Virus record (IMG/VR): IMGVR_UViG_3300002835_006866
Coordinates: 31,852-95,851 of that record
Origin: a virus
Direction: 5' to 3' (one strand)
Length of the DNA stretch: 64,000 nt
Shown here: positions 15,787 to 58,942 of the stretch, piece after piece
Numbering within the stretch: the first letter of the stretch is position 1
Layout: each line of letters starts with the position of its first letter
Made by a program: the position numbers and the translations under genes
Notes under the pieces: generated by a model
The model's input: the letters and a program-made list of their open reading frames with translations, nothing else
Database searches by the model: none
What the model was told of the DNA's origin: nothing

Positions 15787-16191
15787 ATGGTTGATTTATC
15801 CAAGTTTGTTGAGGTGAAACTCAACGAACAGGACGATTTTCTAAAGGTAAGAGAAACTTTGACTAGGATTGGAGTATCATCCAGAAAAGAAAAAGTCCTG
15901 TATCAGTCTTGCCACATTTTACATAAACAAGGCAAGTATTACATTGTACATTTTAAAGAGTTATTTGCATTAGATGGTAAACCCTCAAATCTCTCTGAAA
16001 ATGATATACAAAGAAGAAATGCAATTGCTAATTTGCTAGAAGAGTGGGGTTTAGTTAAAATTATGAACCGATCTATTTTAGAAAATAATATAGCACCACT
16101 GCATCAAATTAAAATTATCTCTTTTAAAGAGAAAGATCAGTGGGAACTGATAACAAAATATAATATAGGCAAAAAATCACAAGATTACTAA
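15787..16191 (+). CDS. regA: translational repressor RegA
   Basis: FLKVRETLTRIG, LYQSCHILHKQGKYYIVHFKELF. Confidence 0.96.
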   Translation: MVDLSKFVEVKLNEQDDFLKVRETLTRIGVSSRKEKVLYQSCHILHKQGKYYIVHFKELFALDGKPSNLSENDIQRRNAIANLLEEWGLVKIMNRSILENNIAPLHQIKIISFKEKDQWELITKYNIGKKSQDY

Positions 16192-16205
16192 TATGGTGAT
16201 TAATT

Positions 16206-16388
16206 ATGACAAAAGTGAAAAACAAATCTATCAAGTTAGTGAATAAATATACTAAAGAAGAAGTGTACACAAGAGACTATGATAATGTGGTTAAAGACGG
16301 CAACAACGAGTTTATTCGTGTTTTCGAATCACATAATCCTAACCGAACTTTTCTTGTCAACCGACAGGCTTTTGTGGTTGTCAAGTAA
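16206..16388 (+). CDS. hypothetical protein
   Basis: ORF with RBS, in operon context. Confidence 0.55.
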   Translation: MTKVKNKSIKLVNKYTKEEVYTRDYDNVVKDGNNEFIRVFESHNPNRTFLVNRQAFVVVK

Positions 16389-16441
16389 GTAGTGGCGCCT
16401 AATGGGCCACTTTATTAACTTGCTTAAAAAAAGGAGAAAAT

Positions 16442-16921
16442 ATGACTATTACTGGTCGATTTGGTCCAATGGTTCTTAATCAGACATTGGGTTTTGAAAA
16501 TTTTATTCGTGACGTTGAAGCAATTCTAAATGATTCTAGACCAACAAACAATTTTCCACCACATAACATCATCAAAGCAGATGAAAACAAATATGTGGTA
16601 GAACTTGCTGTTGCTGGTTTTAGTAAAGACGAAATTGATATCGAAGTGCAGGATAATACTTTGACTATCAAAGGTGATAAGAAAGTCGGTACACCCGATG
16701 TTCAATACCTACACCGTGGAATTGGCACACGATCTTTTACTAAAGCAATCACAATCGCTGACACCATTGAAGTAAAAGGTGCAGAGTTCAAAGATGGTAT
16801 TCTACGCATTGGACTTGAGAACATCATTCCAGAGCATAAGAAACCACGTAAGATTGAAATTGGCAATGAACTAAAGACGTTTGAACCTCAACTTCTACAA
16901 GAAGAAAAACAAACGGCTTAA
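16442..16921 (+). CDS. hsp20: small heat-shock protein Hsp20 (IbpA-like)
   Basis: NFPPHNI, ELAVAGF, YLHRGI, DGILRIGL, IPEHKKPRKI. Confidence 0.95.
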   Translation: MTITGRFGPMVLNQTLGFENFIRDVEAILNDSRPTNNFPPHNIIKADENKYVVELAVAGFSKDEIDIEVQDNTLTIKGDKKVGTPDVQYLHRGIGTRSFTKAITIADTIEVKGAEFKDGILRIGLENIIPEHKKPRKIEIGNELKTFEPQLLQEEKQTA

Positions 16922-31457: not shown

Positions 31458-32159
31458 ATGAAAATTGCATTATGTCTATCTGGGCAAGCCAGATGCTTTG
31501 ACAAAGTATATGAATACGTAAAGAAAAACCTTTTAGATAAACACGATATCACTGTTTTTTGCCACGTATGGGATTTCTCTGGTGTTGAAAAGTTAAAAGA
31601 ACTTTACAAGCCACAAAACATAATTGTGGAACCACCTATTACGCCAGACTTATCAAAGTACACTAGAGTTCCACCACCACAACCAAACTGGAAAGTTAAA
31701 GATCCAGCTCTTTCAACTTATGCTCAATTTTATTCGCTGAATATGGCAAATAAATTGAAGATGCAATATGAGAAAGAAAATAAAATGGTGTTTGATTGGG
31801 TCATTCGTTCGAGATATGACTTTACTTTGAATGTAGAAATTCTTTTTGAAGAATTAGACAATCAAAAACTTTACATACCGAATTGTAGAAGAACACCAGG
31901 TCGAGATTTTGGAAATGACCAGTTTGCTTTTTCTTCTTCAAGAAACATGGACAAATACTGTAATGTTTTTAACCGCATCGATGAGTTTTATGATTTAGGT
32001 ACAACGATGATCGGTGAAGAGATGATGAGCATGAATTGGAAAACAACTGGCCTTGTTGGTGAGAACTTAGTTTATTGTGATATGAATCATCCTTTTCCAC
32101 CAGGTCCACACAATGGAACTTGGCACTCACTAATGAGAGATGATTTTGAAAAGTGGTAA
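31458..32159 (+). CDS. glycosyltransferase-like hypothetical protein (paralogue of previous)
   Basis: KIALCLSGQAR, FDWVIRSRYD, NDQFAF. Confidence 0.6.
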   Translation: MKIALCLSGQARCFDKVYEYVKKNLLDKHDITVFCHVWDFSGVEKLKELYKPQNIIVEPPITPDLSKYTRVPPPQPNWKVKDPALSTYAQFYSLNMANKLKMQYEKENKMVFDWVIRSRYDFTLNVEILFEELDNQKLYIPNCRRTPGRDFGNDQFAFSSSRNMDKYCNVFNRIDEFYDLGTTMIGEEMMSMNWKTTGLVGENLVYCDMNHPFPPGPHNGTWHSLMRDDFEKW

Positions 32160-50623: not shown

Positions 50624-51262
50624 ATGCCCACCATTGCTCTATTTGTTCAACATCCTAGATGTTCAGTTCAATCGTGCAATGGTATAATCAAAGCACTTGG
50701 CTCAGATTACACCTATAAATTATTTACTAAACATGAAATCGAAAACGACTTTTTTAATTCTGTCGACCTCGTATGTTTTCCTGGCGGGGTCGGTGATGTT
50801 GATTCTTATGACACATATTTCAAGTCTCATGGGCGTCTTATCACCGACTACATCAAAAATGGTGGAAGATATCTTGGTATCTGTATGGGTGCCTATTGGG
50901 CTGGGCCTGATTATTTTAATCTTCTGTACGGAGCAAACGCCGTCCAATACATCAAACGACCGAATACTTGCACAAGGCGATCATACTCCAAAGCAATTGA
51001 ATGTGACTGGAATGGCGTACCAGACAGATTCTTCTTTTATGATGGAACTGCATTTGTCGGAAATCCAGAATACTACGATGTTGTCGCCAGATACTCGAAT
51101 GGTGATGCAGCAGCGATCATTCAAGGTAGAATAGGATTAATAGGTCCACATTTAGAAGCGGAAGAATTTTGGTACAACAAACCTTATCTACACAGACATT
51201 GGCATGAAGGCCGGCATCATGTTATGTTAAAAGAATTCGTGAACAAACTAATGGAAAAATAA
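50624..51262 (+). CDS. BPL_N / class I glutamine amidotransferase-like protein
   Basis: FPGG, YLGICMGAY, GPHLE. Confidence 0.75.
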   Translation: MPTIALFVQHPRCSVQSCNGIIKALGSDYTYKLFTKHEIENDFFNSVDLVCFPGGVGDVDSYDTYFKSHGRLITDYIKNGGRYLGICMGAYWAGPDYFNLLYGANAVQYIKRPNTCTRRSYSKAIECDWNGVPDRFFFYDGTAFVGNPEYYDVVARYSNGDAAAIIQGRIGLIGPHLEAEEFWYNKPYLHRHWHEGRHHVMLKEFVNKLMEK

Positions 51263-51901
51263 ATGGCACATTTAGTTGCAAACATACCACCAGTACACTG
51301 TTATATACGCAAAGAGTTTCTTTATGATTTTGAGAAAGGTCATGGAGATTATGAGCCTTGTATATGGGTGACACTTAAAAGCATCCGTGGTCAAGCATTT
51401 AGAATAGAGGCATACTTACCAAACTATGGCGCAATTTATGACAAACTACCTCTCCATGCGTTTGTATCACGCTCAGAGAATCTTGACCCTAAGAAGTTTT
51501 TACCTCTAGATACGTTACAGATTTGGGATTGTTTCAGTTATGACTTTACTGTAATACAAAAAGCCTTTCTGAGAAATCTAACAGCAAAGTTTTATGCTAA
51601 AGATAAACAGTTCTATCAAGGCAATTACTTGTTTACGGTAGACCATTCAGCGCCAGATTTGAATATTATTGATACAAGTTATGCTGAATGGCCAGAAGAT
51701 CATAAAAGTTTCAATTTCATTGAACTAGATAACGGTCAATTTGCTGCACAGCCAAATAATCGTTGCCTGTTTTTAGATGCAGCAAGTAATCCTAAACAAT
51801 TGAAGTTTCCAGACTTTAAAGTTTGCACAAAGAAATATGTTGTAGAACAAAATCCAAAATGGGCATTAGGCGACACAAATACCGTCATGTATGAGGAATG
51901 A
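51263..51901 (+). CDS. conserved hypothetical protein
   Basis: YDKLPLHAF, QIWDCFSY, GQFAAQPNNR. Confidence 0.7.
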   Translation: MAHLVANIPPVHCYIRKEFLYDFEKGHGDYEPCIWVTLKSIRGQAFRIEAYLPNYGAIYDKLPLHAFVSRSENLDPKKFLPLDTLQIWDCFSYDFTVIQKAFLRNLTAKFYAKDKQFYQGNYLFTVDHSAPDLNIIDTSYAEWPEDHKSFNFIELDNGQFAAQPNNRCLFLDAASNPKQLKFPDFKVCTKKYVVEQNPKWALGDTNTVMYEE

Positions 51902-51902
51902 T

Positions 51903-52160
51903 ATGAAAAAAATTATTAGATTCACCGCAGACTGGTGCGGACCTTGTAAAAGTATGGCCGCAAACTTAGGCCAAACCGATACAAGTGGCGTATCGATTGA
52001 AGTGATTGATATCGATAAAAATCCAGATATTGCCATGGAATACGGAATAAGAAATATTCCCACTTTAGTAATGGTAGATGAATCAAACAATGTAATTAAA
52101 AGAAAAACTGGTGTAATGACACCAACACAAATAAAGGAATGGATAAACGGAGATGACTAA
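51903..52160 (+). CDS. trx: thioredoxin
   Basis: WCGPC, IPTLV. Confidence 0.92.
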   Translation: MKKIIRFTADWCGPCKSMAANLGQTDTSGVSIEVIDIDKNPDIAMEYGIRNIPTLVMVDESNNVIKRKTGVMTPTQIKEWINGDD

Positions 52161-53145
52161 AAAAACCGCTAGCAAACTAACAGATGAAAGATCATCGTAT
52201 AAACCTTTTCACTATCCTTGGGCCTATGAATCTTGGTTGAAACATGAACAAAGTCACTGGCTTCACACGGAAGTTCCTATGGCTGAAGATGTAAAAGATT
52301 GGAAAAATAAATTAACGACAGAAGAAAAACAATTTCTTACTCATATTTTCCGTTTCTTTACACAAGGTGATATCGATGTTGCTGGTGGTTATGTCAAAAA
52401 CTATTTACCATATTTTCCACAACCAGAAGTTCGTATGATGCTTCTAGGCTTTGCTGCTCGTGAAGCATTACACATTGCTGCTTACTCACACCTTATTGAA
52501 ACATTGGGTCTGCCTGATGCAATGTATAATCAATTCTTAGAATATCAGGCGATGAGAGACAAACATGATTACGTACTTGATCTTAGCGCACAGAATGGCG
52601 ATGTTGCTTCTACTGCTACTCATATTGCAGTATTCTCTGCTTTCACCGAAGGGATGCAATTATTCAGTTCCTTTATCATGTTACTTAACTTCCCTAGGCA
52701 TGGGAAAATGAAAGGTATGGGCCAAATTGTTACTTGGTCTATCGTTGATGAAACACAGCATGCTGAATCAATGATTAAATTATTCAGAACCTACATAGAG
52801 GAAAATAAAGAAATTTGGAACGATGAATTAAAATCTAGAATTTATACCATTGCTGAGAAAATGGTTGAACTTGAAGATAAATTCATCGATTTAGCATTCC
52901 AAATGGGTTCTATGGAGAATCTAGATGCAGAAGATGTTAAGCGTTATATTCGCTATATTGCTGACCGCCGTCTTATTTCTCTTGGTCTTAAAGGGATTTT
53001 CAAGGTAAAGAAAAATCCTTTACCGTGGGTTGAGGAGATGATTAATGCTCCAACTCATACGAATTTCTTTGAGAACAGAGCTACAGATTATGCCAAAGGT
53101 GCATTGACTGGTAATTGGGAAGAAGTTTGGGGTAAAGCAGCGTAA
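52153..53145 (+). CDS. nrdB: ribonucleotide reductase beta subunit
   Basis: FFTQGD, EALH, EGMQLFSSF, DETQH, NFFE. Confidence 0.96.
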   Translation: MTKKTASKLTDERSSYKPFHYPWAYESWLKHEQSHWLHTEVPMAEDVKDWKNKLTTEEKQFLTHIFRFFTQGDIDVAGGYVKNYLPYFPQPEVRMMLLGFAAREALHIAAYSHLIETLGLPDAMYNQFLEYQAMRDKHDYVLDLSAQNGDVASTATHIAVFSAFTEGMQLFSSFIMLLNFPRHGKMKGMGQIVTWSIVDETQHAESMIKLFRTYIEENKEIWNDELKSRIYTIAEKMVELEDKFIDLAFQMGSMENLDAEDVKRYIRYIADRRLISLGLKGIFKVKKNPLPWVEEMINAPTHTNFFENRATDYAKGALTGNWEEVWGKAA

Positions 53146-53146
53146 T

Positions 53147-53221
53147 ACTAAATATAAAGTCTGATTATCTTCGATGGTCGGACTATTAAAAAAAATTCCA
53201 AATTGTGACGGTTCCGTTACA
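53147..53221 (+). promoter_or_regulatory. pstS upstream region: late promoter, hairpin and candidate Pho-box/operator
   Basis: ACTAAATA (53147); hairpin 53158-53184; TGTGACGGTTCCGTTACA (53204-53221) with GTGAC/GTTAC 11 bp apart. Confidence 0.45.
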
Positions 53222-53258
53222 CTAGAATAATTTTAGTAGTCTAACCATAGGAGATAAC

Positions 53259-54284
53259 ATGAAGAAGTTTTTAGCATCTATTCTATTAGCAGTATCTTCA
53301 GTCGTATCAGCAGCAGAATTCACTGGCGCTGGTGCGACTTTTCCATTTCCAATCTATGCAAAGTGGGCTGAAGCATATAAAGCACAAACTGGCATTGGTC
53401 TAAATTATCAATCAATTGGTAGTGGCGGTGGTATTCGTCAAATCAAGGCAAAAACAGTTGACTTTGGTGCAAGTGATATGCCACTCAAGAAAGAAGAATT
53501 GGATAAAGAAGGTCTTGTTCAATTTCCAGCAATCATTGGTGGTGTTGTACCAGTATTCAATCTTGATGGTATTGCTCCAGGACAATTGAAACTGACACCA
53601 GAAATTATTGCAAACATTCATCTTGGTAAGATTACAAAGTGGAATGACAAAGCACTTACTGATTTGAATCCTGGTTTGAATCTTCCTGCCATGAACATCA
53701 CTGTAGTTCATCGTGCAGATGGTTCGGGTACTACATTCATCTGGACAAATTTCTTGGGCAAAGCAAATGCTGAGTTTGCGAAAACTGTTGGTGAAGGCAC
53801 AGCAGTAAAATGGCCAACTGGTGTAGGCGGCAAAGGTAATGAAGGCGTTGCAGCCAATGTTCAACGTGTCAAAGGTGCATTTGGTTATGTTGAGTATGCA
53901 TATGCTAAAAAGAATAAAATTGCATTTGCTTCGTTGAAGAATCGTGATGGTGTTTTTGTATTGCCTGATGATTCCACATTCAAAGCAGCAGCAACAAACG
54001 CCGATTGGAACAATGCACCAGGAATGTATTTGTTGCTTACATGGCAGACAGGTAAAGATGCATGGCCAGCAACAGGTGCAAGTTTTATTCTGATGCACAA
54101 ACAACAAGCAGATACATTAACAGGTCGTGCAGTTCTCAAATTCTTTGACTGGTCATACAAGAATGGTGGCCAAATGTCAACAGAATTGGAATATGTTCAT
54201 ATGCCTGCCGATGTAATCAAGTTAGTACAAGAAAATTGGAAGAAAGACTTCCGTGGACCAGATAACAACCCAATTTGGAAATAA
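53259..54284 (+). CDS. pstS: phosphate ABC transporter substrate-binding protein
   Basis: Signal peptide; GAGATFP, YQSIGSGGG, DFGASD, RADGSGTT. Confidence 0.96.
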   Translation: MKKFLASILLAVSSVVSAAEFTGAGATFPFPIYAKWAEAYKAQTGIGLNYQSIGSGGGIRQIKAKTVDFGASDMPLKKEELDKEGLVQFPAIIGGVVPVFNLDGIAPGQLKLTPEIIANIHLGKITKWNDKALTDLNPGLNLPAMNITVVHRADGSGTTFIWTNFLGKANAEFAKTVGEGTAVKWPTGVGGKGNEGVAANVQRVKGAFGYVEYAYAKKNKIAFASLKNRDGVFVLPDDSTFKAAATNADWNNAPGMYLLLTWQTGKDAWPATGASFILMHKQQADTLTGRAVLKFFDWSYKNGGQMSTELEYVHMPADVIKLVQENWKKDFRGPDNNPIWK

Positions 54285-54293
54285 GGATATATC

Positions 54294-55700
54294 GTGAAAT
54301 TATTAAAAAAACTTTCTATTGTAGTTGCTTTAGCAGCAGTGATTCCAGCATATGCTGATGAGTATAAAGACACACTGAATATTCTGAGAGAGAAGAATGT
54401 AATCACTCAACAAGAATATGAAGATAAACTCAAAGCATATGAAGAAAAAGAAGAAAACAAAAAGTTTGCTGAAAGAAGAATCGACAAAGACGTTAGCGAT
54501 TCAGTCAAGTATAGACAAGCAAGAGCAAACGATGGAGCAGTCACAGAAAACGGACTTGGACTCAAATCCAAAGATGGTAACACGACTGCCCAATTTACAG
54601 GTCGATTACATATGGACTATCGACACTACACACCAGATTACGGTGTCGGTCAAACCACGGATTCGTATCAGAACCTAGCAGAAGTTCGCCGTGCTAGATT
54701 TGGTGTGCGTGGTCAGTTCAATAAAGACTTCAAGTATCAATTGCTTGCAAACTTTGGTAATGATGTTGGTGCTTCATCAAGTTCGAGTACAATGGATGAG
54801 ATGTGGGTAAACTATGCCGCTAATCCTGAAATGCAATTTCAGTTTGGACTATTCAAAATGCCATTCAGTCTTGAACAAATGACCAGTTCAAACAATATTG
54901 ATTTCATGGAGCGTAGTTTGATTGGGCAGAATGACAGTGAATTGATTCCTGCAAAAGAAACTGGCTTTATGTTGCATGGTGTTCCTGTGTCGGGTCTAAC
55001 TTATCAATTGGCAGTTAGCCGTGGTCGTGGTAACAAAGATGCTATCAATGATAACTTTGATTACATTGGTCGTGTTACCACCAATCTAGCTGAACTTGCT
55101 GGTAATAAAGAAGTTGTTGCTCACTTGGGTGCGGCTTATAGCATTGGTACAATCAAGAGTGGTGTAACGCCATCAAGTGGTCGCACTGAAGCAAGGACAC
55201 AGAGCAGTTGGTTTGTTGGTCCTGCATTGAGTGGTTCTACTGAAAGAACACGTGCAGGTCTTGAAGCAGCATTGGCATACAAAGGTGCAAAAGTACAAGG
55301 TGAATACTTTGATTTTACATATGATCCTACGACAGGTAATGACCAAAAAATCAAAGGTTACTATGTACAAGCACTTTATAATATTACAGGTGAAAATCAT
55401 GCCTACAAAGATGGTGCGTTCAACTGGATCAAACCAAATAATCCTGTAGGTAAAGGTGGCAACGGTGCATGGCAAATTGGAGTTCGTGCCAGTGAGTTTG
55501 ATGCCAGCAATATCACAGTTGTAGCTGGTAAAACAAATCGTGCAGTTGCTATGACATATGGATTGACATGGTTTGTAAACGACAATCTTAGATTCATGAT
55601 AAATTATGTTGACACTAAATTTGATGCACTAGTCGGTAGTTCAGGCGCACGTGTAAATGGCGACAAAGCAGTATTGTTTAGAAGTCAACTAAGTTTCTAA
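54294..55700 (+). CDS. phosphate-selective porin (OprO/OprP family)
   Basis: Signal peptide; EVRRARFG, FKMPFSLEQMTSS, FMERS; C-terminal Phe. Confidence 0.88.
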   Translation: MKLLKKLSIVVALAAVIPAYADEYKDTLNILREKNVITQQEYEDKLKAYEEKEENKKFAERRIDKDVSDSVKYRQARANDGAVTENGLGLKSKDGNTTAQFTGRLHMDYRHYTPDYGVGQTTDSYQNLAEVRRARFGVRGQFNKDFKYQLLANFGNDVGASSSSSTMDEMWVNYAANPEMQFQFGLFKMPFSLEQMTSSNNIDFMERSLIGQNDSELIPAKETGFMLHGVPVSGLTYQLAVSRGRGNKDAINDNFDYIGRVTTNLAELAGNKEVVAHLGAAYSIGTIKSGVTPSSGRTEARTQSSWFVGPALSGSTERTRAGLEAALAYKGAKVQGEYFDFTYDPTTGNDQKIKGYYVQALYNITGENHAYKDGAFNWIKPNNPVGKGGNGAWQIGVRASEFDASNITVVAGKTNRAVAMTYGLTWFVNDNLRFMINYVDTKFDALVGSSGARVNGDKAVLFRSQLSF

Positions 55701-55761
55701 GTAACCCTTAAAAATCGGTCACAATAATCAGGTGACTCTGGAGCCCGTAACCAGAACCCTT

Positions 55762-56592
55762 ATGGACAAAACATATCGCAGTATCTTTATTTCAGACGTT
55801 CACCTTGGCACAAAAGATTGCAAGGCTGAAGCTCTTAATAATTTTCTCAAACACAATACTTGTGATACATTGTATCTCGTTGGTGATATCATTGATGGTT
55901 GGAAAATAAAACAAAACAAGTGGCGTTGGAAACAAAGCCACACAAATGTCGTTCGTCGTGTTTTAGGTCATGCTAAAAAGGGAACACGTGTAGTATACGT
56001 TTTAGGTAATCATGACGAATTTCTCCGACCATTTCTTCAATACAATCTAAGTTTTGGTATGTTAGAAATGGTTAATCAATGTGAGCATATCGGTGCTGAT
56101 GGTAAACATTATTTGGTGATTCATGGAGATTTGTTTGATGGTATCACAAGATTAGCACCATGGCTATCATTTTTAGGAGACAGAGCGTATGATTGCATCT
56201 TATCAGTTAATAATAAATTTAATTGGATCTTACATAGAATTGGTATTGGTTATTTTAGCCTTAGTCGTTTTCTCAAGCACAGGGTAAAAAAAGCCGTAGA
56301 TTTTATCTTTCAATTTGAAAAAAATCTAGCAGGTTATTGCAAGAAAAAAGGATACGATGGCGTGATCTGTGGTCACATACATCATGCAGAAATTAAAGAA
56401 ATAGATGGTGTAACTTATATGAATGATGGTGATTGGGTTGAATCGTTGACAGCATTAGTTGAGCATCATGATGGTCGATGGGAAATAGTAACATGGACAC
56501 AGGAGAGCGACAATGTGGTTGATGATATTGATAGCGGTGCACCTAAACGATCCAAAGGACATACCAGGAAAAATAACTCTGGAATATCCTGA
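55762..56592 (+). CDS. plcP: PlcP-like metallophosphoesterase (phospholipase C; LpxH superfamily)
   Basis: SDVHLG, GDIIDGW, GNHDE, HGDLFD, GHIHH, NDGDWVES; Pho context. Confidence 0.75.
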   Translation: MDKTYRSIFISDVHLGTKDCKAEALNNFLKHNTCDTLYLVGDIIDGWKIKQNKWRWKQSHTNVVRRVLGHAKKGTRVVYVLGNHDEFLRPFLQYNLSFGMLEMVNQCEHIGADGKHYLVIHGDLFDGITRLAPWLSFLGDRAYDCILSVNNKFNWILHRIGIGYFSLSRFLKHRVKKAVDFIFQFEKNLAGYCKKKGYDGVICGHIHHAEIKEIDGVTYMNDGDWVESLTALVEHHDGRWEIVTWTQESDNVVDDIDSGAPKRSKGHTRKNNSGIS

Positions 56593-56683
56593 TCAAATTA
56601 CCTGCGAGAAAAGTTTACAAAGCATGAATTACTGGTTGAAGTTTGATTCATTCAAAATAGAAGGAAAGTGTGTGAAAAAATGA
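56513..56683 (+). CDS. small secreted two-Cys protein (56 aa, overlapping the 3' end of plcP)
   Basis: AGGAG RBS at 56501; MWLMILIAV...C...C. Confidence 0.55.
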   Translation: MWLMILIAVHLNDPKDIPGKITLEYPDQITCEKSLQSMNYWLKFDSFKIEGKCVKK

Positions 56684-57393
56684 TAGGACTTAGCGATAAA
56701 ATCACGATTGTAATACCCTGCAAGAATGAAGAAGAGTATATCCCTCATTTACTCACATCACTCAAACTACAAAAAATCGGCAAAACTAGAATCATTATTG
56801 CCGATTGTTCTACAGACAATACCCGACAAGTTATAAAAGATAATAGTGAATCTTTGAATATCGAAATCATTGAGGGTGGTCCCGTATCAATTGCTAGAAA
56901 TAATGGTGCTAAATTAGTTACCACTCCTTATATTTTGTTTATAGATGCCGACGTTCGTTTTCAAGATAAGTATGTGATTCGAGATGCTGTTGATGAATTA
57001 GAATTCAACGATTTGGATTTGGTTGGTGCTAAAATATACTGTTATGATAAGGACTTGAGAGCAAGTTTTGGATTTATGATGTTTAACTTTATAAACAATA
57101 TTCTCAAAAGATATAGTCCATTTGCCGTAGGTGCATTTATGCTAACACGAAGAGATAAGTTTGAAGAATATGGTGGTTTTCCTGAGAACTATACCACCTC
57201 AGAAGATTTCTTTCTCTCAAGAATGTACAGTCCCGAAAAGTTCGAGATTATCAACCACTACTTTGGACAAGATTCCCGCAGATTCAAAAAGATGGGTTAC
57301 TTTGGCATGGCAGCATATCTCATCAAAAACTTCATAAATCGTAATAACAAAGAATACTGGGATAGATTAGACGGGACCAAATACTGGAACTAG
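56680..57393 (+). CDS. family 2 glycosyltransferase
   Basis: IVIPCKNEE, DCSTDNT, ARNNGA, FIDAD, SED, SRRF. Confidence 0.9.
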   Translation: MIGLSDKITIVIPCKNEEEYIPHLLTSLKLQKIGKTRIIIADCSTDNTRQVIKDNSESLNIEIIEGGPVSIARNNGAKLVTTPYILFIDADVRFQDKYVIRDAVDELEFNDLDLVGAKIYCYDKDLRASFGFMMFNFINNILKRYSPFAVGAFMLTRRDKFEEYGGFPENYTTSEDFFLSRMYSPEKFEIINHYFGQDSRRFKKMGYFGMAAYLIKNFINRNNKEYWDRLDGTKYWN

Positions 57394-57431
57394 TCTAAAT
57401 AGATGTTTACGCCTAACATAGGGGGGGCATT

Positions 57432-57887
57432 ATGAAACATCTATTTTCTTTTATCATGGCATTATTCCTCATCTCTTCCTCTTATGCCAGCCAGAAAGAA
57501 TACACGCTGAATATTACCAAAGATGATGTAATTATTCATAATCAAAACGACTGGCATTTCGTAGTCAAGTCCGATGACTATGATATATACATTGAGAAAG
57601 GTATGCTAGGCACAAAAGGTGAAGTGGTTAGTTTTCATGCTTTTGTCCCATATCACGTTCCAGAGAAAATGTACGGCACAGATGTTCCTGTGAAAGCATT
57701 ATATGTTTACGGTTCACTACACTGCGGTAAACAAAAATTGATGTTGCTCATGGACATGTATGTTGATGAGACTAATAAAATAATTTTTAGGAATACCTAC
57801 GAAGTCAATACACATGTTGTTCCTCTGAATGTGCCAAATACCACACGTTTCGACATACTCAATTTGGTGTGTAAAGAATCTGTATAA
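57432..57887 (+). CDS. secreted/periplasmic hypothetical protein
   Basis: Signal peptide, two Cys; late promoter TCTAAATA at 57394. Confidence 0.6.
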   Translation: MKHLFSFIMALFLISSSYASQKEYTLNITKDDVIIHNQNDWHFVVKSDDYDIYIEKGMLGTKGEVVSFHAFVPYHVPEKMYGTDVPVKALYVYGSLHCGKQKLMLLMDMYVDETNKIIFRNTYEVNTHVVPLNVPNTTRFDILNLVCKESV

Positions 57888-57906
57888 TAACTCGAAAGGA
57901 ATTAAA

Positions 57907-58371
57907 ATGAATGTAAAAAAATATTATATCATGCTTGCCGCTATGGCAGCATTTTTGATGTATTTTCCTTTGGTCAATATGGCCTTGGCTAAAACACCAC
58001 AAGGTGTCATGTATGATGCTCAAATTCTCCGTGTAAGTGATGGTGACACGGTAGTTGTTTCTGCACCATTTTTACCACCACCATTAAAACAAGAGCTTGC
58101 TGTTCGTGTATATGGTGTTGATACTCCAGAAAAAGGCCATCGTGCTCAGTGCCCACAAGAAAATGAAAGAGGGCTACTCGCATCTAAATTTACCACTAAT
58201 GCTGTCGCTAAATCAACTAAAAGACAATTCGTTCTATATGGTTGGGACAAGTTTGGTGGTCGGGTTTTAGGAGATATTATTCTAGATGGCCAAAGTCTAC
58301 GAGCCATGTTGATTCAAAATGGTTTCGCTCGTGAATACTATGGTGAAGCAAAGCAGTCATGGTGTAACTAA
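57907..58371 (+). CDS. secreted thermonuclease (SNase family)
   Basis: Signal/TM segment; DGDT, VRVYGVDTPE, DKFGGRVLG. Confidence 0.9.
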   Translation: MNVKKYYIMLAAMAAFLMYFPLVNMALAKTPQGVMYDAQILRVSDGDTVVVSAPFLPPPLKQELAVRVYGVDTPEKGHRAQCPQENERGLLASKFTTNAVAKSTKRQFVLYGWDKFGGRVLGDIILDGQSLRAMLIQNGFAREYYGEAKQSWCN

Positions 58372-58522: not shown

Positions 58523-58942
58523 ATGACATGGTATTATGACGGTGTGCCGTTTGAAGAAAGCGGCACACATTTTGGTTTTGTTTATTTGATAGAAAACCTT
58601 ATCACAGGTAGAAAATATATTGGACGCAAATACTTTAGTAAAGCTGGCACAAAGCAGGTCAACGGCAAGAAAAGAAAAATACGAAAAGTTTCTGACTGGG
58701 AAACCTATTGGGGTTCCAACGAAACACTCAAAAGAGAAGTGGCCGAACTAGGCGAACATAACTTCCGCAGAACAATTCTCCACCTCTGTAAAACCAAATC
58801 TGAATGCTCTTATTTTGAATTAAGAGAACAAATGGACCGAAGGGTTCTAGAATCTGATATGTGGTACAATGATTGGGTCTCGGCGAAGATAAGAAAAGAT
58901 CACCTAAAAACTATTGTGCAAAGCAACAAAACTACTAAATAG
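58523..58942 (+). CDS. GIY-YIG endonuclease (EndoII/DenA-like)
   Basis: GFVYLI...YIGRK, YWGS, WYN. Confidence 0.8.
   Translation: MTWYYDGVPFEESGTHFGFVYLIENLITGRKYIGRKYFSKAGTKQVNGKKRKIRKVSDWETYWGSNETLKREVAELGEHNFRRTILHLCKTKSECSYFELREQMDRRVLESDMWYNDWVSAKIRKDHLKTIVQSNKTTK

Follow-up and report, generated by a model that had tools for sequence, protein, structure and literature searches.

A PlcP lipid-renovation pathway has been described in bacteria (PMC9239053, PMC8231724), and the closest counterparts of the locus reported here are the bacterial PlcP-Agt operons, such as those of Sinorhizobium meliloti (SMc00171), Pseudomonas aeruginosa (PA3219-PA3218), SAR11 HTCC7211, Phaeobacter MED193 and Methylosinus OB3b. 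Here, we analyse a phage cassette that combines pstS, a porin gene, plcP and a family 2 glycosyltransferase gene (GT2), found in a 64,000-nucleotide stretch of the IMG/VR virus record IMGVR_UViG_3300002835_006866 (positions 31,852 to 95,851; hereafter the window), which covers the last 64 kb, at the 3' end, of a linear 95.9-kb record with a completeness rating of ~54%. Phosphorus is often limiting for phage production, and membrane phospholipids are among the larger phosphorus stores of a cell. We consider it likely that the cassette is a phosphate-stress auxiliary module that couples phosphate uptake with the remodelling of host phospholipids into glycolipids, and that the phage probably frees phosphorus from host membrane lipids during infection.

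The central gene of the cassette (55762..56592, + strand) encodes a PlcP-type Mn-metallophosphoesterase, which by its sequence is a member of the PlcP family and not LpxH. Along its full length, its product is 55% identical to the protein of the P. aeruginosa PA3219 locus (243 aa, E 1e-92) and 49% identical to that of the S. meliloti SMc00171 locus (245 aa, E 2e-85), matching the level of ~51% at which the characterised PlcPs are identical to one another (PMC9239053). PF00149 and PF12850 both score above their cut-offs, and a residue check based on generic metallophosphoesterase metal-ligand motifs found all seven metal-ligand positions (D12, H14, D42, N83, H121, H205 and H207) to be invariant relative to the characterised PlcPs. 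Furthermore, the blocks GNHDEF, LGD.AY, YWSLS, GHIHHA and GDWVES.TAL.EH.DG are common to the phage and characterised PlcPs and are not present in LpxH.

JGI, GenBank and RefSeq label such proteins as LpxH, which would place the enzyme in lipid A synthesis. LpxH does belong to the same metallophosphoesterase superfamily and shares N-terminal motifs with the window protein, and LpxH structures are matched weakly, in the N-terminal part only. However, identity to E. coli LpxH is just 23% over 120 aa, with an alignment that stops at residue 123, and the LpxH equivalog models fail by a wide margin (NF003743, 43.3 bits against a cut-off of 134; TIGR01854, 32.9 bits against 190). In a maximum-likelihood tree, made by a quick search with Shimodaira-Hasegawa-like approximate likelihood-ratio test (SH-aLRT) support only and with the PlcPs of SAR11 HTCC7211, MED193 and OB3b left out, all 23 phage representatives group together (support 100), in a clade sister (86) to one (94) that holds both characterised PlcPs. 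E. coli LpxH and another true LpxH are separated from these by very long branches (support 99-100). Moreover, the database label is itself misleading, since both experimentally characterised PlcP loci bear the same mis-annotation, as UDP-2,3-diacylglucosamine diphosphatase (CP090106.1, NZ_CP042268.1). Contradicted on all these points, assignment to LpxH has in our view a close to negligible probability. The tree, model scores, identities and motifs thus agree with the first-pass annotation, made from the window sequence alone, which had proposed a PlcP-like enzyme and had pointed to GNHD in place of the GNRD of LpxH, a substitution that we verified in the protein.

The genomic surroundings of the two reference genes are consistent with their identity. 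The P. aeruginosa gene (NZ_CP042268.1) lies between azoR3 and a family-1 glycosyltransferase gene, followed by cyaB, and we take this azoR3-plcP-glycosyltransferase-cyaB order to be the PA3219-PA3218-PA3217 layout. The S. meliloti gene (CP090106.1) adjoins genes for a LuxR-type regulator and an acyl-homoserine-lactone synthase, presumably sinR/sinI, which would be the position of SMc00171. Both sequences are listed as plasmids in PLSDB, CP090106.1 being a 3.7-Mb replicon labelled pSymB, and are really chromosomal DNA. Among cellular genomes, five named Alphaproteobacteria with the closest homologues all have LpxI above cut-off and none has LpxH above cut-off, and one gammaproteobacterial metagenome-assembled genome (MAG) carries a true LpxH (219.7 bits) plus a PlcP-like paralogue.

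Linkage of the cassette genes was assessed in 80 related loci, of which 75 could be scored for the gene after plcP and 70 for the genes upstream of it. A glycosyltransferase gene directly follows plcP in 70 of the 75 IMG/VR loci, encoding either the window-type GT2 (42/75) or an Agt-like GT4 (28/75). The pstS-porin pair immediately precedes plcP in 11 of 70 loci, and other loci have it downstream. Linkage in related phages, on which the first-pass annotation had staked its proposal, is therefore borne out. The GT4 of these sibling phages is 37% identical over 323 aa to the PA3218 Agt and groups with the gene that follows plcP homologues in cellular genomes; such a GT4 gene is present in 6 of 38 cellular rows of the reduced tree set, all in the clade of characterised PlcPs. 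At least three swaps between GT2 and GT4 can be placed on the PlcP tree.

The GT2 gene of the window (56680..57393, +) encodes a 237-aa GT-A glycosyltransferase that is a candidate diacylglycerol glycosyltransferase. It matches PF00535 (86 bits) and, over residues 84-186, PF13506 (Glyco_transf_21; 31.8 bits, cut-off 21.7); GT21 includes the processive diacylglycerol glycosyltransferases (Pgt), and of the CAZy families, three are known to make glycoglycerolipids, GT21 among them (PMC8231724). An AlphaFold2 model has a confident GT-A fold (predicted local distance difference test, pLDDT, 94.7). The nearest atlas clusters are viral, and relatives of the same length, at 35-47% identity, form a family; more distant relatives carry generic names. 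The position after plcP, together with the GT21-domain match, leads us to propose diacylglycerol as a candidate acceptor.

Upstream of pstS by ~40 nt, the window contains a Pho-box-like direct repeat (53203..53220, +; TTGTGAC-GGTT-CCGTTAC). As in a Pho box, two 7-nt direct repeats with an 11-bp period stand ahead of a -10-like box and upstream of Pho-regulon genes. A strict pattern that resembles the E. coli Pho box, (T/C)TGT(A/C)A(C/T)-N4-(T/C)TGT(A/C)A(C/T), with two 7-mers at the same period, gave 31 matches in 1.26 Mb of related loci, on the coding strand only, and in every case plcP (19) or pstS (12) begins no more than 150 nt downstream. The window copy is the sole match to a loose pattern on either strand of the 64 kb. 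With one such site, before pstS, the arrangement suggests that pstS, porin, plcP and GT2 form a single transcript, and the cassette may be under PhoB control.

The two uptake proteins are well supported by profile searches. PstS (53259..54284, +; phrog_5385) has a signal peptide, passes both equivalog cut-offs (NF008171, 417.9 bits, cut-off 339; TIGR00975, 365.7 bits, cut-off 205) and is 54-58% identical to homologues from Betaproteobacteria and Alphaproteobacteria alike. The porin (54294..55700, +) scores 160.6 bits with PF07396 (cut-off 20.9), matches the structures of OprP (2o4v) and OprO (4rjw) at E ~6e-19 and is at most 29% identical to named porins; it has a signal peptide, an N-terminal coiled-coil stretch and a C-terminal Phe. 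OprP residues R34, R59, R60, K74, D94, S124, S125 and R133 are kept, and Y62 and Y114 are replaced by R and K, respectively. Five of the six residues that we take to be the central phosphate-binding residues of OprP (R34, R59, R60, D94, K121 and R133) are thereby retained, the exception being K121. PHROGs v4 holds a family for neither the porin nor PlcP.

Between the porin gene and plcP lies a 55-nt structured RNA element (55704..55758, +) consisting of two hairpins, with stems at 55718-55722/55732-55736 and 55737-55741/55751-55755. The element ends 4 nt before the ATG of plcP, with no Shine-Dalgarno sequence in between. In the alignment of related elements 97% of cells are paired, compared with 20-40% in slid controls; six of nine pairs change on both sides, including all five of stem 1, and none of 500 shuffles reached the observed values. 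RNAalifold predicts the same two-hairpin fold. A reading of the alignment for a pseudoknot between the 5' flank and the loops gave no covariation, and this candidate was rejected. A covariance model, R1, scores 67 bits on the window element, its single copy there. The same model detects the element in 42 of 83 loci, where it is present once per locus and in each case lies on the coding strand inside the cassette. No Rfam family matches the element. When all viral contigs were scanned, cassette genes adjoined 26 of the 43 strong matches, compared with 0 of 35 chance pattern matches.

At least five further strong copies of the RNA occur upstream of hsp20 in T4-like contigs (L190:2000-2053, L197:1205-1258, L217:3817-3870, L237:3472-3526 on the minus strand, and L209:4027-4080). 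Four of these five lie between regA and hsp20, and L209 has an epimerase-like gene upstream instead; the copies are usually followed by a small CUUCGG-type hairpin, and a copy in L244 adjoins a tRNA-like sequence. The regA-hsp20 spacer of the window itself (15787-16921) contains no copy, even with the covariance-model filters off. This distribution suggests that the element is a regulatory or mobile RNA found in phages more generally, with a possible link to RegA.

From what was observed directly, namely the gene identities, PlcP membership, linkage, the conserved Pho-box-like site and the folded RNA, we infer the following course of events in an infected cell. A PhoB-type promoter before pstS would probably drive the cassette as a single transcription unit, and the exported PstS and porin would add to the high-affinity phosphate uptake of the host. 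At the inner membrane, PlcP would remove the phospho-head group from phosphatidylethanolamine and phosphatidylglycerol to give diacylglycerol, to which the downstream glycosyltransferase (GT2 here, the Agt-like GT4 in sibling phages) would add a sugar, so that the membrane would stay intact as phosphorus-free glycolipid. From the phospho-alcohols set free, host phosphatases would then produce phosphate that phage DNA synthesis can use, and the released phosphorus may in this way feed deoxynucleotide (dNTP) synthesis.

Several points weigh against this module. PlcP yields phospho-alcohols and not phosphate, and host enzymes are therefore still needed. The single Pho-box-like site of the window is a degenerate variant, judged against an E. 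coli-type box from which the host PhoB motif may differ. In the porin, a member of the OprO/OprP family by its sequence, the residue aligned with the key K121 of OprP is Q, and phosphate selectivity is thus putative. Exclusivity of the RNA to the phosphate cassette is ruled out by the copies between regA and hsp20, so that the element is not specific to phosphate genes. As for GT2, it does not belong to the Agt family, being a GT-A enzyme with GT2/GT21 matches as opposed to the GT-B/GT4 of Agt enzymes such as atu2297, PA3218 and GTcp; a structural search returned generic GT-A matches only, including TarS/TarP and PcManGT; and a cellular plcP-GT2 pair was found in 0 of 401 sampled Pseudomonadota genomes at E<=1e-25, a weak negative, as the search had no positive control.

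The GT2 observations would also fit a scheme in which PlcP frees head groups alone and the glycosyltransferase acts not on diacylglycerol but on polyprenyl phosphate, lipopolysaccharide or another lipid, given that the fold matches TarS/TarP, PcManGT and further enzymes that do not use diacylglycerol, that the best NCBIfam match is a sub-cut-off arsenosugar/mycofactocin-type glycosyltransferase, and that no cellular plcP-GT2 pair turned up in the sampled genomes. Nevertheless, GT2 alternates with the Agt-like GT4 in exactly the same slot, repeatedly so on the PlcP tree, and it passes the GT21 domain cut-off, which makes this scheme unlikely in our judgement; GT2 may work like Agt without belonging to its family. 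A stronger form of the phosphate-stress module, in which a large and widespread lake-phage lineage turns the host inner membrane to glycolipid during infection, under PhoB, to meet the phosphorus demand of its genome, the phage GT2 represents a new class of diacylglycerol glycosyltransferases and the RNA tunes the translation or stability of plcP, is possible but doubtful, and we offer it tentatively.

Downstream of GT2, the block continues with genes for a secreted 151-aa protein (57432..57887, +), which has a signal peptide but no Pfam, NCBIfam or PHROG match and is conserved between the glycosyltransferase and the nuclease in related loci, and for a secreted staphylococcal-nuclease-like (SNase) endonuclease (57907..58371, +; PF00565, 38.8 bits; phrog_452, 70 bits), whose sequence shows DTPE and Arg motifs as well as a signal peptide. 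The two exported proteins bear on a different explanation, that the PlcP-glycosyltransferase pair mainly alters the envelope, blocking superinfection or changing receptors, and that the nuclease acts in the periplasm to destroy incoming DNA. Surfaces are frequent targets of phage glycosyltransferases (PMC7029224), lipid remodelling in bacteria changes phage attachment and membrane proteins (PMC9938194, PMC9804370), and the PHROG match of GT2, although weak, is GtrB-like. On the other hand, the pair is linked on the genome to pstS-porin, with the same Pho-box-like site shared by both, which points to phosphate economy; furthermore, the products of PlcP-Agt are inner-membrane lipids, not surface glycans. 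We therefore regard a primarily envelope-directed role as improbable. The nuclease is present in 27 of the 80 loci at varying positions, and its tie to the cassette is accordingly looser, which weakens the suggestion of the first-pass annotation that it mines external DNA. That earlier interpretation is thus upheld in part: the grouping with PlcP and the linkage hold, but scavenging by the nuclease is weakly supported, and the use of diacylglycerol by GT2 and a supply of phosphorus to dNTP synthesis are putative.

An origin of the cassette from bacterial DNA, through mis-assembly or mis-binning into the viral record, is raised by the host-like character of its genes and by near-identical genes in two MAGs (L003, L004). 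Yet the block sits between phage nrdAB and a seg-type endonuclease gene in a T4-like genome whose long open reading frames occupy one strand throughout the window. Among its proteins, the hallmarks gp43 polymerase, gp41 helicase, gp46/47, RegA and a virion protein mark this uncultured phage as a T4-like myovirus; its gp43 is ~50% identical to the polymerases of cultured cyanomyoviruses, and the 64-kb window holds no tRNA genes. The cassette recurs in hundreds of viral contigs: at least 592 stretches in IMG/VR encode close PlcP relatives (74-96% identity), some of them on contigs of 160-367 kb, and long contigs include homologues at 85-88% identity. Cellular PlcP homologues, in contrast, are only 50-61% identical to the phage PlcP, and the phage proteins form a clade of their own. 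Bacterial origin by misassembly is thus barely conceivable.

As for the MAGs, L003 (Haliscomenobacter, a 70-kb contig) and L004 (Gammaproteobacteria) carry phage-type plcP and the phage GT2, and L003 carries the RNA element as well. L168 and L169 are further contigs of the same Haliscomenobacter MAG as L003, binned with phage-type plcP and GT2, and L168 falls inside the phage PlcP clade. The phage-type GT2 and the RNA element on these contigs indicate that they are probably phage contigs inside bins.

All genes of the region lie contiguously on the + strand, in the order nrdA, two small genes, nrdB, pstS, porin, plcP, GT2, secreted protein and SNase. This matches the first-pass annotation, which had placed co-oriented pstS, porin, metallophosphoesterase and GT2 genes directly after nrdB, with a signal-peptide SNase two genes on, and had taken ATG 55762 as the start of the phosphoesterase gene, as we confirmed. 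The alternative start given by the open-reading-frame finder, GTG 55732, was rejected, as it falls inside a non-coding conserved element with 1-nt indels among relatives. For GT2, the length of homologues (236-241 aa) makes ATG 56680 the most likely start, and the SNase gene most likely starts at 57907 and not at 57829, because its signal peptide begins there.

The upstream neighbour nrdB (52153..53145, +) encodes ribonucleotide reductase beta (PF00268, 259.6 bits; NF007186, 450 bits, cut-off 237). Between nrdA and nrdB (50624-51901), there is a GATase/BPL_N-like gene and a match to phrog_3704 ('ferredoxin'), and in related loci both accompany the nrd genes and often the cassette too. On its downstream side, the block is bordered by a SegE-like GIY-YIG homing endonuclease gene (58523..58942, +; PF19835, 118.8 bits), homologues of which come after the SNase gene in many related loci. 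It is plausible that this endonuclease drives the exchange of the cassette between phages.

Full-text literature searches returned no report of a viral plcP, and in this part the earlier remark that a phage set of porin, plcP and glycosyltransferase genes is little characterised stands; for the porin it does not, as a 2026 preprint on freshwater amoC-phages has a phage oprP (bioRxiv 10.64898/2026.06.18.733297). The records of Pelagibacter phage Mosig and of S-SRM01 annotate a plcP homologue as LpxH, and the corresponding genome papers leave the gene undiscussed. In Mosig (MT647606.1, 93031-94866), pstS and the plcP homologue stand side by side in divergent orientation, and the encoded PlcP is 48% identical to that of the window; its position outside the main phage clade suggests a separate acquisition. 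Viral surveys of auxiliary metabolic genes (AMGs) place lpxH under lipopolysaccharide synthesis (PMC9611531, PMC10653327), and may mean the same gene.

If our interpretation is correct, the PlcP pathway carried by phages would represent a new viral route for redirecting host phosphorus. Viral 'lpxH' counts in AMG surveys would then shift from lipopolysaccharide synthesis to phosphorus stress, and plcP abundance or transcripts, when used as a marker of bacterial phosphorus limitation, would partly reflect phage genes. Furthermore, a new glycolipid synthase could come to light in GT2, and a new regulatory RNA of phages in the RNA element.

Compared with known systems, the oprP of the freshwater amoC-phages likewise encodes an OprO/P-family porin in lake phages, in a preprint that makes no mention of pstS, lipids, glycosyltransferases or lpxH. 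With the Pho-regulon genes of cyanophages (pstS, phoA and phoH with Pho boxes), the cassette shares a pstS behind a Pho-box-like site and the presumed logic of relieving phosphorus limitation of phage replication, to which it adds an outer-membrane porin and a membrane-lipid pathway. The bacterial PlcP-Agt operons have in common with it a PlcP at 49-55% identity, a glycosyltransferase gene directly downstream and a putative Pho-type control site, and in sibling phages the likeness extends to a true Agt-like GT4. Unlike those operons, the cassette is carried by a lytic T4-like phage, pairs PlcP in the window with a 237-aa GT-A enzyme unrelated to Agt, is fused with the pstS-porin pair and has a structured RNA before plcP.

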